Positions 4,823 to 37,152 of a stretch of 64,000 bases of DNA are shown in pieces. Numbering within the stretch: the first letter of the stretch is position 1; each line of letters starts with the position of its first letter. The notes beneath the pieces were generated by a model. It was not told where the DNA came from. It did no database searches and saw only the letters and a list, made by a program, of their open reading frames with translations. Where the stretch lies: positions 1,030,657 to 1,094,656 of the forward strand of contig CP129476.1 in the NCBI GenBank assembly GCA_030583805.1, in the 5' to 3' direction. This DNA comes from Patescibacteria group bacterium (lineage in GTDB: Bacteria; Patescibacteriota; Patescibacteriia; SG8-24; DYFX01). A program made the position numbers and the translations under genes.

Positions 4823-6567
4823 TCGCGTCTGACGTCCTGCAGCGGAAGATCGATGCGCTGCCGGAGCCGGTGCTCGAGTACCTCTATTCGGAGCGCGCGG
4901 GCGCCCTGAATTTGGAAATCATCGAGCAGCACCAGCTGAACGAAAAACAGGAAGAAGCGTACTTCCAAATCCTGCGCGAACTGTTCGTCAAAGATCTTCC
5001 GCTTGAGCGCTTGCTGCTTGAGCTGAAATCCAAGCTCGGCCTCGATGACGCCAAGGCGAAAGCGCTGGCCATCGATATCGCGGGCAAGCGCCTCTTGCCG
5101 CTCGACAAGTGGCTCGCCGACGTTACGGCGTTTTTGCGCGCGCTCGGCGCCGACCCGAAAACGTTCCCGGATTTCCGCGTAACGATCGCGCGCCGCACGG
5201 TCGACGAGGCCGTGGAGGAGATTACGACGTCCGTCGCGTCCGAAGCGACCGGTCATCCGCAGCAGCGGTTGCAGAACGTCGTCGAGTCGGTGCTCGCCGG
5301 CGTGCGTACCGAAGCGCAGGCGCTCGACGTGCTGACCAGGCCGGAAAAAATCGGCGGTGTCGGTCTCGAGCCGAAAGCGGCCGAGCGCGTGCTTGAAGAG
5401 ATTCGCGAGGAATCGCATGCCGTCATTTTGGATCAGCGCGCGCCGCGGCACGAGAAAAAAGAGGAAGCCGCCCCGGCGAAAGCCAAGAACGTCGGGCTCG
5501 AATTGACGCCGGAGGACGCGCTCGAAGTCGCGCAGTTCAAGAAGGCGACGCCGGCCGTCGATATCGACGCGCTCGTGCAAGAAATTTATCTTGCGTCCGG
5601 CCTTGCTACGCAAGATGAGGCCATGGCGAAGCGCGTGAAGACGATTATCGGCAACCGCTTGCGCGACGTGCGCGACCAAATGGAAACGCTCGAGATCATG
5701 ATCCAGCCGAAAGAGCTGGGCGGTTTGAGCATGGGTCAGGACGCGGCACGCGCGCTCTTGAACCTCATTCAATCGCGTTTGCAAAAGACGGACACGGCGG
5801 CGCAAGCGAAGGTCCAGACGGAAAAGAAGAAGTGGGTGGAAACGGAGCGTTTGCAAAAAGCGCAGTCGGAAACCCAGGCGAACGTTGAGCAGAAAACGGA
5901 GCTTGAACAGCTGTACCAAAGCATCGTTTCAAAATCGAAAAAGGTCGCTCCGACGCCGGAGAAACCCGCCGCCGTAGCGACGATGTTGGACGGAAAGTCT
6001 GCCGCGCCGGCGAATCTTCCGATTTCTTCGGCCAGTCCCGTGCCTCCGGACTTCCGCGCGCCCGCCGCTCCGCCCGAAGAGCCCGCTGTTTCCGCCCCAG
6101 CCGCTCCGCCCGCCCGCCCGCCGCTTCCGCCCCCGGTCACGATGGTGAAGCCGATGCCCGCCCCCGCGCAGCCGCCGGCACCGGTTGCCGCGCCGGCATC
6201 ATTCGCGCAGCGGCCGAAACTCGACGACGTGAAAGCGTCGCCGAAATTGACCGGCCCGGTCGAAGAGCTTCGGGCGATCACCATCCTCGACTTCCGCCGC
6301 TTGTCCAGGGATCCGAAGGAAGCCTGCGTGAAGATCAAGGACAAGATCGATTTGCTCGGAGAGCAGTCGTACACCCGTCGGTCAGAGGGGATCGCTGCTT
6401 GGACCGCTTCCGAGGTGACCAGGACCTACCTCGAATTGATGCGGGAAAGCTTGAATGGCACGCCCCTTACGGAGGCGATCGCCGCTCGCGAAGCGGCCAA
6501 AAAGCCGGTACTTACGGCCGACGAGTTTCGGGCCGTGGCCGATTTGAGCCGGCAACTACGATATTAA
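4819..6567 (+). CDS. Hypothetical Pro/Ala-rich protein in T4SS-like operon
   Basis: 582 aa ORF translationally coupled to the upstream gene. Central proline-rich low-complexity segment (PPEEPAVSAPAAPPARPPLPPP). No recognisable catalytic motif. Confidence 0.45.
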   Translation: MIASDVLQRKIDALPEPVLEYLYSERAGALNLEIIEQHQLNEKQEEAYFQILRELFVKDLPLERLLLELKSKLGLDDAKAKALAIDIAGKRLLPLDKWLADVTAFLRALGADPKTFPDFRVTIARRTVDEAVEEITTSVASEATGHPQQRLQNVVESVLAGVRTEAQALDVLTRPEKIGGVGLEPKAAERVLEEIREESHAVILDQRAPRHEKKEEAAPAKAKNVGLELTPEDALEVAQFKKATPAVDIDALVQEIYLASGLATQDEAMAKRVKTIIGNRLRDVRDQMETLEIMIQPKELGGLSMGQDAARALLNLIQSRLQKTDTAAQAKVQTEKKKWVETERLQKAQSETQANVEQKTELEQLYQSIVSKSKKVAPTPEKPAAVATMLDGKSAAPANLPISSASPVPPDFRAPAAPPEEPAVSAPAAPPARPPLPPPVTMVKPMPAPAQPPAPVAAPASFAQRPKLDDVKASPKLTGPVEELRAITILDFRRLSRDPKEACVKIKDKIDLLGEQSYTRRSEGIAAWTASEVTRTYLELMRESLNGTPLTEAIAAREAAKKPVLTADEFRAVADLSRQLRY

Positions 6568-11466: not shown

Positions 11467-11554
11467 GGAGGGGTGGCCGAGCGGTTTAAGGCAGCGGTCT
11501 TGAAAACCGCCATTCCGCAAGGAATCGTGAGTTCGAATCTCACCCCCTCCGCCA
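11467..11554 (+). tRNA. tRNA-Ser (anticodon TGA), type II with long variable arm, CCA encoded
   Basis: Cloverleaf derived by hand: acceptor GGAGGGG/CCCCTCC, anticodon loop CTTGAAA, T-loop TTCGAAT, 3' GCCA. Confidence 0.85.
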
Positions 11555-11563
11555 GAGATTTCC

Positions 11564-11809
11564 ATGAAAAATTGGCACACCTACATCGTACGCTGCGCCG
11601 ACGGGAGTTTGTACGTCGGCATCACCACGGATCTCGAGGCGAGAATGTTGAAGCACAATGAAGGGAAGGGCGGAGCCTATACGCGCAGCCATAGGCCCGT
11701 CGTTTTGGTTTGGCATGAGACTGCTTCCTCCGAGTCGGCAGCGCGGAAAAGGGAAGCGGAGCTAAAGAAGTGGCCGAAGGCGAAAAAGGAGGAACTTGCC
11801 GGGGGATGA
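11564..11809 (+). CDS. GIY-YIG nuclease family protein (small stand-alone URI-domain protein)
   Basis: [18 protein letters not shown]...R...H motif typical of the GIY-YIG domain. 81 aa. Located 9 nt downstream of tRNA-Ser. Confidence 0.85.
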
Positions 11810-15933: not shown

Positions 15934-16452
15934 ATGGCGGATGAATTGCTCGAAAGCGGTGCGGAGGCCGGCGTGCCCTACTACGGCGAGGAGGTCTTCG
16001 GCTGGATGGTCGACGAGTACGAACGGCACGAACGCGGGCCGATGTGGTACGCGATCGCCTTTTTGATCGGCCTTAGCTTCGTCATGTACGCGATCATCAC
16101 GCGCAACTTCCTTTTCGCGGTCATCGTGATCATGGCGGGCGTGATCGTCGCCCTTTCGGCCATGCGCGAACCGCAGAAGATCCCGTTCCTGATCACGACG
16201 CGCGGCGTGGCGCTCGGCCACCAGTTCGTTCCGTTCAAGGATCTCCGGAGTTTCTGGATCCTCTACGAGCCGCCGCACACCAAAAATCTCTACGTCGATT
16301 TCCGCAGCTCGGTCACGCCGCACCTCGTCATCCCGCTCGGCGAGCAGGATCCGGTCGAGTTGCGCCAGGCGCTGCTCGAATTCCTGGGCGAGAACGTGAC
16401 GCAGGAAGAGGAACCGCTCACGGACGTGCTCGGACGCTTCCTCAAGATCTGA
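15934..16452 (+). CDS. Hypothetical membrane protein
   Basis: Two to three TM helices (YAIAFLIGLSFVMYAIIT, LFAVIVIMAGVIVALSA). Start set at the ATG after the -10 element rather than the ORF-track ATG, which overlaps the -10. Confidence 0.45.
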   Translation: MADELLESGAEAGVPYYGEEVFGWMVDEYERHERGPMWYAIAFLIGLSFVMYAIITRNFLFAVIVIMAGVIVALSAMREPQKIPFLITTRGVALGHQFVPFKDLRSFWILYEPPHTKNLYVDFRSSVTPHLVIPLGEQDPVELRQALLEFLGENVTQEEEPLTDVLGRFLKI

Positions 16453-34279: not shown

Positions 34280-35410
34280 ATGGAAACCCTTCTCGTGCAC
34301 GGCTCGACCGTGCTGCTCTTCATCATCGTTCTCGCCGTCCTCGTGCTCGTGCATGAGCTCGGCCATTTTTTGACCGCGCGCTGGTTCGGCATCGACGTTG
34401 AAGAATTCGGTTTCGGCTTCCCGCCGCGCGTTTTCGGCGTCAAAAAGGGAAAAACGCTCTACACGCTGAACTGGATTCCGCTCGGCGGCTTCGTGAAAAT
34501 CAAAGGCGAGGACGACCCGACCGCCCACGGCCCCGGCACGTTTGCGCACAAACCCGCTTGGATCCGCGCGATCGTGATCGGCGCCGGCGTCTTCATGAAC
34601 CTCGTGCTGGCTTCGCTGCTTTTCGCGATCGGCCTCACGATCGGCATGCCGACGGCCGTCGAGAGCTTGCCGGAGAACGCGCGCGTCCGCGACCGCCAGG
34701 TGCAAATCGTCCAGGTGCTGGAAGGCACGCCGGCCGAACAAGCGGGATTCATGCCGGGCGACACGATCGTTTCGATCAACGGCCAAACCTTCACCGAAAT
34801 CGAAGACGTCCAGGCGCTCATCAACGAAGCCGAGCCGCCCGTTGCCGTCGAAATCCGCCGCGGCAAGAAAACGTTCACGCAAGAGCTCGCACCCGCGCTC
34901 GATCCGGGACTCGGCAAGCGCGTCATGGGCGTCGCTTTGGTTGAAGCGGCGACCGTTTCGTACCCTTGGTACATTGCGATCGTCAAAGGCGTGCAGACCA
35001 CCGGCTTCTATCTGAAAGAAATCCTGCTCTCCTTCGCCGACCTGTTCAAAGGCCTGTTCGTCGGACAAAAATCCGACGTCGAATTCTCCGGACCCGTCGG
35101 CATCGCGGTCCTCACCGGCCGCGCCGCGCGCCTCGGCTTCACCTACCTCCTGCAATTCGCGGCGCTGCTCTCGATCAACCTCGCCGTCATCAACGTCCTG
35201 CCGATCCCGGCGCTCGACGGCGGACGCCTCCTCTTCATCATCATCGAAAAATTCCGCGGCCGCGCCGTCCGCCCGGTCGTCGAAGCCGTCATCCACCGCA
35301 TCGCGTTCTTCCTGCTGCTCGGCCTCATCGTCATCGTCACGGCCCACGACCTCGGGCGCTACGGCAATCAGATTTTGAAAGCGTTGGGGAGTTTGATCGG
35401 GGTGAGTTGA
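34280..35410 (+). CDS. rseP: RIP site-2 metalloprotease RseP (M50) with PDZ domain
   Basis: HELGHF zinc motif in TM1, PDZ domain, C-terminal LDGG motif. Confidence 0.85.
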   Translation: METLLVHGSTVLLFIIVLAVLVLVHELGHFLTARWFGIDVEEFGFGFPPRVFGVKKGKTLYTLNWIPLGGFVKIKGEDDPTAHGPGTFAHKPAWIRAIVIGAGVFMNLVLASLLFAIGLTIGMPTAVESLPENARVRDRQVQIVQVLEGTPAEQAGFMPGDTIVSINGQTFTEIEDVQALINEAEPPVAVEIRRGKKTFTQELAPALDPGLGKRVMGVALVEAATVSYPWYIAIVKGVQTTGFYLKEILLSFADLFKGLFVGQKSDVEFSGPVGIAVLTGRAARLGFTYLLQFAALLSINLAVINVLPIPALDGGRLLFIIIEKFRGRAVRPVVEAVIHRIAFFLLLGLIVIVTAHDLGRYGNQILKALGSLIGVS

Positions 35411-35417
35411 ACATTTT

Positions 35418-35651
35418 ATGAACAAGCGCGGGATGGTCGCGGCCCTCATCGTAGGAATACTGATTGGATACTTCGCTCATCAGGATAAAAATGACGAGCT
35501 AAGTTACGGTTCAACAGGGCTTCCAAAAAACTGCCGAGCGATCATAAAGGCGAACATCGACGCGTATTACAATGACGAGTACTCGGCGGAAGAAATTATC
35601 AGCTCAATCAATCGAAATTGCGGAGAATTCGGTTACTCATGGAGTGAATAA
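35418..35651 (+). CDS. Small hypothetical protein with N-terminal TM; low-GC
   Basis: 77 aa ORF, markedly lower GC than surroundings. Confidence 0.3.
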   Translation: MNKRGMVAALIVGILIGYFAHQDKNDELSYGSTGLPKNCRAIIKANIDAYYNDEYSAEEIISSINRNCGEFGYSWSE

Positions 35652-35655
35652 TTTC

Positions 35656-35684
35656 ACCACCCCGGCGGAGGCCGGGGCCCAGCC
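35656..35684. repeat. 29-bp inverted repeat (left), itself a 7-bp-stem hairpin
   Basis: ACCACCCCGGCGGAGGCCGGGGCCCAGCC; reverse complement matches 35976-36004 at 28/29. Confidence 0.7.
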
Positions 35685-35685
35685 T

Positions 35686-35964
35686 TCAAAGGTCGTCATA
35701 CAAATCCCGCCAGGCGGGATTTTTCGATTCGATAAGATGCAGCTTCCAAATACGATTCCATTCCTTCATTCGTTTTTCACGCTGCAAAGCTGCTTCGAAA
35801 TCCTCAATTGCTTCATAGTAAACTAGTGTTTTTACACCGTACCGTTTCGTAAAACCCTCGACGATTCCTTCCTTGTGTTCATGAATGCGTTTCTTCAAAT
35901 CCGAAGTCTGTCCAATATAGATCGTGCCGTTTTTCTTGCTTGCGAGAATATAAACGTAATACAT
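35686..35964 (-). CDS. GIY-YIG nuclease family protein (low-GC)
   Basis: YYVYILASKKNGTIYIGQTSDL...R...E motif; 92 aa; ~43% GC. Confidence 0.85.
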   Translation of the reverse strand: MYYVYILASKKNGTIYIGQTSDLKKRIHEHKEGIVEGFTKRYGVKTLVYYEAIEDFEAALQREKRMKEWNRIWKLHLIESKNPAWRDLYDDL

Positions 35965-35975
35965 GGGACATCAGG

Positions 35976-36004
35976 GGCTGGACCCCGGCCTCCGCCGGGG
36001 TGGT
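35976..36004. repeat. 29-bp inverted repeat (right)
   Basis: GGCTGGACCCCGGCCTCCGCCGGGGTGGT. Confidence 0.7.
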
Positions 36005-36093
36005 AAGTGAGGGAAACTGCTTGGAATACCGCACAACAACCATTGATAAGGCAAGAAGGTGACAAAATCAGGTATTTCCCTTAAAGTACGGAT

Positions 36094-37152
36094 ATGAAAG
36101 AGCAGTTTGAACGGCTTCAGACCGAAGCCTCCGCCGCCTTCGCGGCAGCTAAAGATGCGGCTGAACTTGAAGCCGCGGAAATCAAATATCTCGGACGCAA
36201 GGGCGAAATGGCCTCCCTCATGCAAGGGATGGCTGGTTTGCCTTCGCATGAGCGCCCCGCGATGGGCAAGCTCGCCAACGAGGTGAAGATCGCGATCGAC
36301 CGCGCGCTCGCCGAACGCAAGAAGGAGCTCGAAGCCGAAAAGCTCGGCAAGCTCGCCACCGAAGAGTGGATCGATCTCACGGCGCCCGGCACGCGCCCGC
36401 CCGAAGGCCATCTCCATCTCGTGACCGACGCCATCGCGACCGTCACCGATATTTTTACGCGCCTCGGTTTTACGCGCGTGCGCTATCCGGAAGTCGAGTG
36501 GGATTGGTACGCCTTCGAAGCGCTCAACATGCCGAAGGACCACCCCGCGCGCGACGAATGGGAAACATTCTTCATCGACGCGCCCGAGCATCCGAAGCTC
36601 GGCAAAATGGTGCTCACCCCGCACACCTCGTCCGGCCAGGTGCGCGAAATGCAGAAAGGCGTCCTGCCGATCCGCATGATCAACATTTCGAAAACGTACC
36701 GCCGCCAAATCACGCAGCGTCATCTCCCGATGTTCCACCAGTTCGAGGGAATGATGATCGACAAGGACGTTTCCGTCACGCACCTCAAGGGCGTCCTCGA
36801 CCACTTCGCGCGGGAATTCTTCGGACCGACCCGGAAGACGCGCTTGCGCCCCTACCACTTCCAGTTCACCGAACCGTCGTTCGAAATCGACGTCACCTGC
36901 GACGTCTGCGGCGGCACCGGCCAGTACGGCAACGCCAAGTGCAAGCTCTGCAAGGAAGGTTGGCTCGAGCTCGGCGGCGCCGGCATGATCCACCCGAACG
37001 TCCTCAAGGCCGGCGGCGTCGATCCGGAGAAGTGGAGCGGCTTCGCCTTCGGCTGGGGCGTCGAGCGCACGATGATGATGCGCGAAGGCCTGAAGCTCGA
37101 CGACATCCGCCATCTTTATAAGAACGATTTCCGCTTCTTGCGGCAGTTCTAG
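36094..37152 (+). CDS. pheS: Phenylalanine--tRNA ligase alpha subunit, with Cys4 zinc-ribbon insertion
   Basis: Class II aaRS motifs (FRPYHFQFTEPSFEID, GWGVERTMMM); inserted CDVCGGTGQYGNAKCKLC. Confidence 0.9.
   Translation: MKEQFERLQTEASAAFAAAKDAAELEAAEIKYLGRKGEMASLMQGMAGLPSHERPAMGKLANEVKIAIDRALAERKKELEAEKLGKLATEEWIDLTAPGTRPPEGHLHLVTDAIATVTDIFTRLGFTRVRYPEVEWDWYAFEALNMPKDHPARDEWETFFIDAPEHPKLGKMVLTPHTSSGQVREMQKGVLPIRMINISKTYRRQITQRHLPMFHQFEGMMIDKDVSVTHLKGVLDHFAREFFGPTRKTRLRPYHFQFTEPSFEIDVTCDVCGGTGQYGNAKCKLCKEGWLELGGAGMIHPNVLKAGGVDPEKWSGFAFGWGVERTMMMREGLKLDDIRHLYKNDFRFLRQF

Follow-up and report, generated by a model that had tools for sequence, protein, structure and literature searches.

Single-domain GIY-YIG nucleases of the Ssn family are encoded by genes that are typically flanked by the enzymes' own recognition hairpins, an arrangement described as the SRM-ssn-SRM module (SRM, Ssn-related motif; Chenal et al. 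2025, Nat Commun 16:2388, PMC11893778). SsnA of N. meningitidis (NMV_0044), a 94-aa protein with a single GIY-YIG domain (CDD family cd10448), binds the hairpin repeat NTS (CGTCATTCCCGCGMAVGCGGGAATCYRG) only as single-stranded DNA (ssDNA) and cuts a few nucleotides 5′ of it, and the reverse strand of NTS, double-stranded DNA (dsDNA) and RNA are not substrates (PMC11893778). The C right after the palindrome is critical for binding and the 3 nt before the palindrome are critical for cleavage, and mutation of Y6, Y17 or E64 abolishes cleavage (PMC11893778). SsnA homologues occur in many phyla, with at least one flanking SRM in 71% and SRMs on both sides in 42%, and four homologues each cleave their own motif, the characterised enzymes including those of Neisseria and Wolbachia (PMC11893778). 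In Neisseria, SsnA lowers transformation by NTS-bearing DNA; the authors remarked that NTS-ssnA-NTS resembles an insertion sequence, likened it to the REP/RAYT system and proposed domestication (PMC11893778). Here we describe a 349-bp unit in a 64-kb stretch of DNA from a Patescibacteria group bacterium (contig CP129476.1; the whole stretch is hereinafter designated the window), which is very probably an SRM-ssn-SRM module of this kind, with a variant hairpin and acting as the family does. Its biology is not new in kind but that of a member of the system published in 2025, a paper to which broader search terms led after a search on GIY-YIG together with 'repetitive extragenic palindromic' had returned nothing; our literature search yielded no Ssn paper later than that one.

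The unit, listed in the reading direction of its gene, consists of the following features.

35976-36004, minus strand: upstream SRM hairpin (inverted-repeat arm, match to hairpin model R1, ssDNA fold, conservation)

35965-35975, minus strand: 11-nt spacer that separates the ATG from the upstream SRM (read from the sequence)

35686-35964, minus strand: ssn gene, encoding a 92-aa single-domain GIY-YIG protein, a predicted site-specific ssDNA endonuclease (Pfam, homology)

35702-35722, no strand assigned: hairpin within the 3′ end of the ssn coding sequence (perfect palindrome, ssDNA fold)

35656-35684, plus strand: downstream SRM hairpin (inverted-repeat arm, match to hairpin model R1, ssDNA fold, conservation)

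The two arms, each 29 nt long and 28/29 complementary, enclose the 92-aa open reading frame (ORF) as the sole credible gene, in agreement with a preliminary description of this DNA that had pointed to 29-bp inverted repeats tightly flanking a lone 92-aa GIY-YIG gene. When up to 3 mismatches are allowed, the 29-nt repeat has two matches in the window and none in 100 dinucleotide shuffles. Both arms fold as ssDNA into hairpins with a GGAG loop (downstream -10.1 kcal/mol, upstream -10.8 kcal/mol). The downstream SRM, read on the plus strand, has the head ACC, a 7-bp stem CCCCGGC/GCCGGGG with an A·C mismatch in place of the eighth pair, and the tail CCAG(CC), which lies 1 nt from the stop codon. 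The upstream SRM, read along the sense strand of ssn (here the minus strand), has the same head, loop and tail around an 8-bp stem (ACCCCGGC/GCCGGGGT), and its tail stops 11 nt short of the ATG. In both arms the head faces away from ssn. The spacer leaves no space for a promoter within the unit, so that transcription of ssn must begin outside or read through.

No T-tract follows either arm and a terminator scan of 35300-36200 gave no terminator-like site, so that folds and scan together uphold the earlier view of each repeat as a hairpin without a T-tract, the stem being 7 bp downstream and 8 bp upstream. An Rfam scan of 35300-36300, with matches reported by E-value, gave chance matches only, none of them near its gathering score. 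A GC-poor stretch spans ~35400 to 36100, although the figures first given for it need correction: the window measures 59.8% GC instead of the 63% quoted for the genome, and the whole 349-bp unit 49% instead of ~43%, a value approached only by the part between the arms (42%) and the ssn coding sequence (41%).

The 92-aa protein matches Pfam family PF01541 (GIY-YIG) over residues 1-72 with an E-value of 3.4e-18; over the same stretch Pfam gives just one further match, to the related T5orf172 family, and NCBIfam holds no specific family for it, the sole match (TIGR01453) falling below its cut-off. Its identity to the ORF at the N. gonorrhoeae ssnA locus, used here as a proxy for SsnA, amounts to 57% over 89 aa (E 2e-39 pairwise, 3e-28 by tblastn), where the published criterion for SsnA homologues is an E-value below 1e-10. 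Residues Y5, Y16 and E63 are invariant in a family alignment (A2) and align with the gonococcal ORF as well; they lie one residue earlier than Y6, Y17 and E64 of N. meningitidis SsnA, an offset in numbering that we infer. The protein also carries the Ssn-type C-terminal segment W-x-R-x-W-K...N-P-x-W-x-D-L. In a large protein collection there is no identical protein but there are proteins 73-95% identical, one of which is labelled 'Patescibacteria group bacterium' by NCBI, and a PDB search returned only distant UPF0213 structures (E 1e-5) and no SsnA structure.

The same hairpin architecture flanks homologous genes far outside this lineage. A scan of a genome collection with one genome per species, which returned no member of the source lineage and whose best match is 69% identical, gave 80 loci with homologues of ~95 aa and 55-69% identity, drawn from Patescibacteria, Pseudomonadota, Planctomycetota, Chloroflexota, Ignavibacteria, Omnitrophota and other phyla. 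An inverted-repeat search of 120 nt either side of the gene revealed that most of these loci share a consensus close to TGTCA-TTCCCGC-GAAG-GCGGGAA-TCCAG, and in a stricter census of 95 homologous genes an SRM-like hairpin stands on both sides of 57 and on one side of 30. Set in register, the window motif reads ACC-ACCCCGGC-GGAG-GCCGGGG(T/C)-CCAG and the common one GTC-ATTCCCGC-GAAG-GCGGGAAT-CCAG. Among 84 distinct hairpins, 7 of the 8 stem pairs vary on both sides; the high fraction of paired cells is in part due to the selection, which demanded perfect stems.

A covariance model (R1) was made from these 84 hairpins, which flank homologues in other phyla, with the window lineage excluded. It recognizes the upstream arm (35976-36006, minus strand, 36.2 bits, E 1.1e-7) and the downstream arm (35654-35684, plus strand, 33.1 bits, E 7.9e-7), and these are its sole significant matches over the 64 kb, the next best having an E-value of 0.17. 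That third match (16325-16356, 13.9 bits, CGTCATCCCGCTCGGCGAGCAGGATCCGG) has an imperfect stem, is not significant and probably arose by chance. Orientation was counted for the nearest motif on each side of the 82 ssn genes at the 80 loci: the head points outward in 53 and inward in 13 of the upstream motifs, and outward in 58 and inward in 10 of the downstream ones. The two arms in the window follow this majority, head-outward geometry. Membership in the Ssn/SRM system is based on the protein sequence, on a hairpin model derived from other phyla, and on the family-wide association of gene and motif with its head-outward geometry.

The likeness to the published system extends to detail. The window protein has the same size class and domain content (~92-94 aa, one GIY-YIG domain), and its motif has the same layout of a 3-nt head, an 8-bp stem, a 4-nt G-rich loop and a C-Y-R-G tail, placed in inverted orientation on either side of the gene; the critical C directly 3′ of the palindrome is present in both arms as the first C of the CCAG tail. 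The differences lie in the head, where the lineage has a conserved ACC in place of GTC, and in the loop, with GGAG in place of GMAV. Heads of ACC, ATC, GTT and GCC occur in other sampled members of the family too. The nearest motifs at the gonococcal locus, where R1 gives 11 strong matches within 3.3 kb (canonical NTS copies), point head-inward, in contrast to those in the window, and the window lineage further differs by an extra hairpin inside the coding sequence and by its host, Patescibacteria (also known as CPR) being a group that is not mentioned in PMC11893778.

The module occupies one site in this lineage. In all relatives looked up (73-95% Ssn identity) it adjoins the M50 gene, and pheS too if the contig extends far enough, the exception being a locus designated L011, whose left flank is different. 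The features on either side of the unit are as follows.

34280-35410, plus strand: M50/RseP-type protease gene, flanking the unit and followed by the 77-aa ORF

35418-35651, plus strand: 77-aa ORF with a hydrophobic N-terminus, a GC-poor (46% GC) neighbour outside the module (no Pfam or NCBIfam match)

36059-36087: promoter-like site for pheS (sigma-70-like, GTGACA, 17 nt, TAAAGT)

36094-37152, plus strand: pheS, flanking the unit on the other side

In the six lineages measured (the window and five others), the unit is exactly 349 bp long. Compared with the five others, the upstream arm in the window is identical at 27-28 and the downstream arm at 27-29 of 29 positions, whereas the third codon positions of ssn are 56-60% identical in the more distant of the measured lineages, indicating that the hairpins are under much stronger constraint than the coding sequence. 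Of the 11-nt spacer, only 5-7 positions are kept among the lineages, and similarity between lineages ends exactly at the outer ends of the hairpins.

A metagenome scan with the M50 protein identified murI-M50-pheS as an old synteny in Patescibacteria, in which the gap between the M50 gene and pheS can be as short as ~10-40 nt in distant relatives. Identity of M50, murI and pheS divides the closer loci into clade A (the window, L001 and L093) and clade B (L009-L011, L094 and L095), the M50 proteins of the two clades being ~70% identical. The window, L001 and L009-L012 carry the module, which is missing from the M50-pheS site in L093, L094 and L095, whose gaps hold other sequence and no such hairpin; the comparison with related strains called for in the preliminary description thus shows presence/absence polymorphism in both clades. 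The GC content at third codon positions (GC3) of ssn (0.46, 0.48 and 0.76) follows that of the host but lags behind it: 0.46 in the window compared with 0.75-0.83 for host genes, and 0.76 in L009 compared with 0.82-0.95, the module lying 0.2-0.35 below its neighbouring genes. This tracking of host GC3 argues for long residence. In this Patescibacteria lineage the module has long resided at a single locus; its hairpins are almost invariant, and it has occasionally been lost.

These observations bear on a reading of the hairpins as ordinary expression signals (intrinsic terminators, mRNA-stabilising stem-loops or an operator) that have nothing to do with a nuclease substrate. The hairpins sit in the 5′ untranslated region and right after the stop codon, where they would be transcribed, and both stems are stable and GC-rich, as such signals would have it. 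The missing T-tracts and the empty terminator scan speak against termination, and neither the conservation and fixed orientation of unpaired head and tail across phyla, nor the occurrence of the motif as dispersed genomic repeats in other genomes, nor a sequence invariance far beyond the needs of the stem alone is expected of an expression signal; in addition, the characterised enzyme binds its motif as ssDNA and not as RNA (PMC11893778). We therefore regard this reading as highly improbable. The view that the repeats are not simple terminators but form one unit with the gene, already taken in the preliminary description, is sustained by the recurrence of the same architecture around homologues across many phyla.

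Small ORFs with a hydrophobic N-terminus, none of them related to another, fill the slot that separates the M50 gene from the outer end of the downstream hairpin (77 aa at 35418-35651 in the window, 86 aa at 5315-5575 in L009, 65 aa at 1109-1306 in L174 and 129 aa at 951-1340 in L175), while no ORF is called there in L001, L178 and L179. This slot is a small hot spot of gene turnover that abuts the hairpin head. The possibility that the 77-aa ORF travels with the module was rejected, as the ORF is absent from L001 and replaced by unrelated ORFs in other relatives; it is indeed GC-poor, as first described, but at 46% rather than ~43% GC.

A second discontinuity is found at the opposite end of the unit. 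Starting at the CCA of the upstream hairpin head, L011 (from position 2053) and L009 (from position 4962), which come from sister samples, are 100% identical over 1965 bp; to the left of that CCA they are unrelated, with aspS and a ybaK-like gene in one and pheS in the other. The junction is due either to genuine rearrangement at the motif or to the joining of sequences at a further copy of it during assembly. Homologues of the L011 left-flank genes (aspS and the ybaK-like gene) do not occur in the window, and the rearrangement cannot be placed on this genome.

Taken as an SRM-ssn-SRM module, the 349-bp unit would be an Ssn nuclease gene bracketed by two inverted copies of its own recognition hairpin with their 5′ heads outward. 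By analogy with the Neisseria and Wolbachia enzymes, the 92-aa protein would bind the hairpin solely as ssDNA, would read the sequence of the stem, the C that immediately follows it and the 3 nt on its 5′ side, and would then cut the hairpin strand a few nucleotides 5′ of the motif. As cleavage by the characterised enzyme occurs 5′ of the head, the cuts predicted here lie just beyond the unit, one per strand: at the upstream end the sense strand would be cut, and at the downstream end the antisense strand. Cuts at these positions would fit the ending of inter-lineage similarity at the hairpin ends, the variable ORF slot and the L011/L009 junction. Both the nuclease activity of the 92-aa protein and its cleavage position are predicted from its characterised relatives. 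The module, domesticated or self-preserving, would most likely serve to cleave ssDNA that is marked by sequence, such as DNA entering the cell in transformation; active transposition is a less likely role.

Several points weigh against this assignment. Dispersed SRM copies are absent from both the 64 kb and the flanks of relatives, compared with hundreds of NTS copies per Neisseria genome, so that the role seen in Neisseria is not simply transferable. The published degenerate SRM pattern, HGTCWYN(0-2)YYVSBRHN(0-5)WNVSBRGN(0-2)RNCYNB, misses both arms because of the ACC head in place of GTC and the G at the second loop base, and specificity must therefore differ from that of the tested enzymes. 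The published SRM and NTS patterns have two matches in the window (11123 and 32227), neither of them a hairpin, while shuffled sequences give a mean of 0.54 and at most 3 matches to the SRM pattern; the pattern is a search heuristic, and its paper itself describes variants (NTSvar). Furthermore, our protein comparison used the N. gonorrhoeae locus ORF and not the biochemically studied N. meningitidis protein, and the gonococcal ORF lacks an in-frame ATG in the record used. The record (L173; NZ_CP119142.1, 1880219-1883485) belongs to a 2.17-Mb N. gonorrhoeae chromosome that is filed as a plasmid in PLSDB; the ssnA-like frame spans 1501-1773 of the locus, and a nearby ATG at 1494 is out of frame, pointing to a frameshift, a pseudogene or faulty assembly.

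The assignment of the unit to the Ssn/SRM system extends that system to Patescibacteria with a variant hairpin (head ACC, loop GGAG), and since the published pattern misses this variant, the published counts of SRM association are lower bounds. It suggests that the module can persist as a minimal set of one gene and two hairpins, without dispersed repeats in 64 kb, and the very strong purifying selection on the hairpins argues that they are of importance to ssn itself, over and above any function as genome-wide marks. The outer ends of the hairpins are also borders of variable DNA, consistent with the reported cut position. For the development of ssDNA tools, the locus offers one more enzyme-motif pair, presumably of distinct specificity.

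Whether the unit moves by itself is a separate matter. The preliminary description had proposed a candidate miniature mobile element, and we considered an autonomous form of this idea, in which the 349-bp unit transposes or homes by means of its own protein cutting at the hairpin termini. The insertion-sequence-like architecture was remarked on by the Ssn authors (PMC11893778), and the unit does have terminal inverted repeats, 29 nt at the exact ends of the conserved unit. It contains no transposase, and Pfam and NCBIfam give a GIY-YIG nuclease domain only. Patchy presence at one site in two sister clades, a module GC3 below that of neighbouring genes, inter-lineage homology that halts exactly at the outer hairpin ends, an L011 breakpoint that coincides precisely with the outer end of the upstream hairpin, and a family still 55-69% identical across very distant phyla are likewise what a mobile element would produce.

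Against mobility stands the finding that relatives sampled at 73-95% share the M50/pheS locus while the M50 proteins of their hosts have diverged to 70% identity. The constant length and the ssn GC3 that tracks the host point in the same direction, as does the want of an internal promoter space. No target-site duplication or other direct repeat marks the ends of the unit in the window sequence, neither the 64 kb nor the 3-5 kb flanks of relatives' copies yielded another copy of the ssn gene, the 18-nt hairpin core (the 18-mer CCCCGGCGGAGGCCGGGG) has no further copy in the window or in those flanks, and there is no solo or doublet hairpin elsewhere in the 64 kb. GIY-YIG enzymes are hydrolytic nucleases, and to our knowledge no strand-transfer activity has been described for them, which also counts against autonomous transposition. 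The earlier proposal thus retains the polymorphism and the low GC in its favour, and is opposed by the single site, the constant length and the lack of a target-site duplication or second copy. That every carrier down to 73% Ssn identity has the module at the same site, with constant length and a GC3 that follows the host, favours an old insertion that was vertically inherited and lost several times. It is unlikely that the unit is, or recently was, a self-contained mobile element spreading via ssDNA intermediates.

Movement elsewhere in the family has some evidence of its own. Closely spaced SRM-like sites across the 80 loci form inverted pairs far more often than direct ones (67 vs 20), and gene-less doublets with outward heads occur, which would be explained, were the unit mobile, as non-autonomous derivatives analogous to those in RAYT/REPIN or insertion sequence/MITE pairs. 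In one deltaproteobacterial metagenome-assembled genome, a 515-bp unit that contains SRM-ssn-SRM is present on two contigs, bordered by short direct repeats; this unit, however, has different outer inverted repeats of its own, and ssn is possibly a passenger there. Such signs keep a mobile origin alive for the family but do not show that the unit in the window moves. If it did, it would be the smallest autonomous mobile element known, Ssn would cut just outside the outward hairpin heads, the gene-less doublets would be REPIN-like derivatives, and the variable small ORFs and breakpoints at the outer hairpin ends would be footprints of its activity.

The two copies of the 515-bp unit (L017 2884-3398 and L045 2884-3371) are 91% identical and are bounded by 17-nt inverted repeats (CATAAGCGCTAACTTAA ... 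TTAAGTTAGCGCTTATG) that enclose SRM-ssn-SRM. The copies are flanked by direct repeats (GGGTTGGAAGGG and GGGTTGGGAGGG for one pair, CCCCAGCCC twice for the other) that resemble target-site duplications.

The gene-less SRM pairs, which are REPIN-like and have the same head-outward geometry as the pairs round ssn, measure ~70-120 bp overall and were seen at several loci, Neisseria included. Outside Neisseria they lie at L045 6133-6214, L036 1927-1998 and 3405-3479, and L017 390-509; in the N. gonorrhoeae locus L173 they lie at 765-875, 1017-1127, 1279-1388, 1849-1959 and 2005-2110.

Beyond the Ssn system, the closest parallel is RAYT/REPIN, which shares with the SRM-ssn-SRM module a single-copy gene between two inverted copies of a hairpin recognized as ssDNA, gene-less inverted doublets in other genomes and long vertical inheritance of the gene. 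The two differ in that the window enzyme is a GIY-YIG hydrolase and not an HUH/Y1 transposase, with no known covalent intermediate or strand transfer, and in the lack of an amplified repeat population in this genome segment. GIY-YIG homing endonucleases such as I-TevI resemble the window gene in the catalytic domain and in being small, GC-poor and patchy; by contrast, the window protein, 92 aa as a whole, has no DNA-binding extension, its gene lies in no intron or phage, and its characterised relatives cut ssDNA only, with no dsDNA homing site. UPF0213 proteins (EF2693 and BH0048; PDB 1ywl and 1zg2) are alike in size and catalytic domain, but the Ssn protein of the window matches them weakly (E 1e-5) and they are without the Ssn C-terminal segment.

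A second small GIY-YIG gene in the window belongs to this last group. The 81-aa ORF at 11564-11809 begins 9 nt past tRNA-Ser(tga) (11467-11554), matches PDB 1ywl and 1zg2 at an E-value of about 1e-13 as a UPF0213-type protein, is 31% identical to the ssn protein and is without the Ssn C-terminal segment; its GC content of 56.5% is near-genomic, and the R1 scan of the window gave no SRM hairpin near it. It was rejected as a sister copy of ssn on the grounds of its 31% identity, UPF0213 membership, near-genomic GC and lack of an SRM. The position 9 nt after tRNA-Ser had been put forward as a hint of mobility; the position holds, and the hint falls away with the gene's assignment to a different subfamily.

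The internal hairpin of the window lineage (35702-35722) is a perfect 9-bp palindrome, AAATCCCGC-CAG-GCGGGATTT, within the codons for K-N-P-A-W-R-D-L; on the plus strand a run of TTTTT comes after it. It folds as ssDNA with energies of -9.1 and -9.4 kcal/mol (z about -4) and is kept in every 92-aa relative, and third-position identity is raised over the final 81 nt of the ssn coding sequence (0.74-0.78, against 0.47-0.55). It was rejected as a third motif of the whole family, since none of 82 other members tested has it. It may serve as a terminator for the convergent transcript of the M50 gene and the 77-aa ORF.

Two further elements were noted in the M50-pheS gap. The ssn-less relative L094 carries at 1960-2085 a different palindromic element that encloses two short hairpins and has a 26-nt inverted repeat, CCGCGGCTAACGAGACCCCTCCAGCC and its complement, matching at 21/26 positions. 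The block GATGACAAAAT...TTCCCTTAAAGT upstream of pheS (36059-36087 in the window, ~3636 in L093 and ~2100 in L094) is kept in all relatives, with or without ssn.

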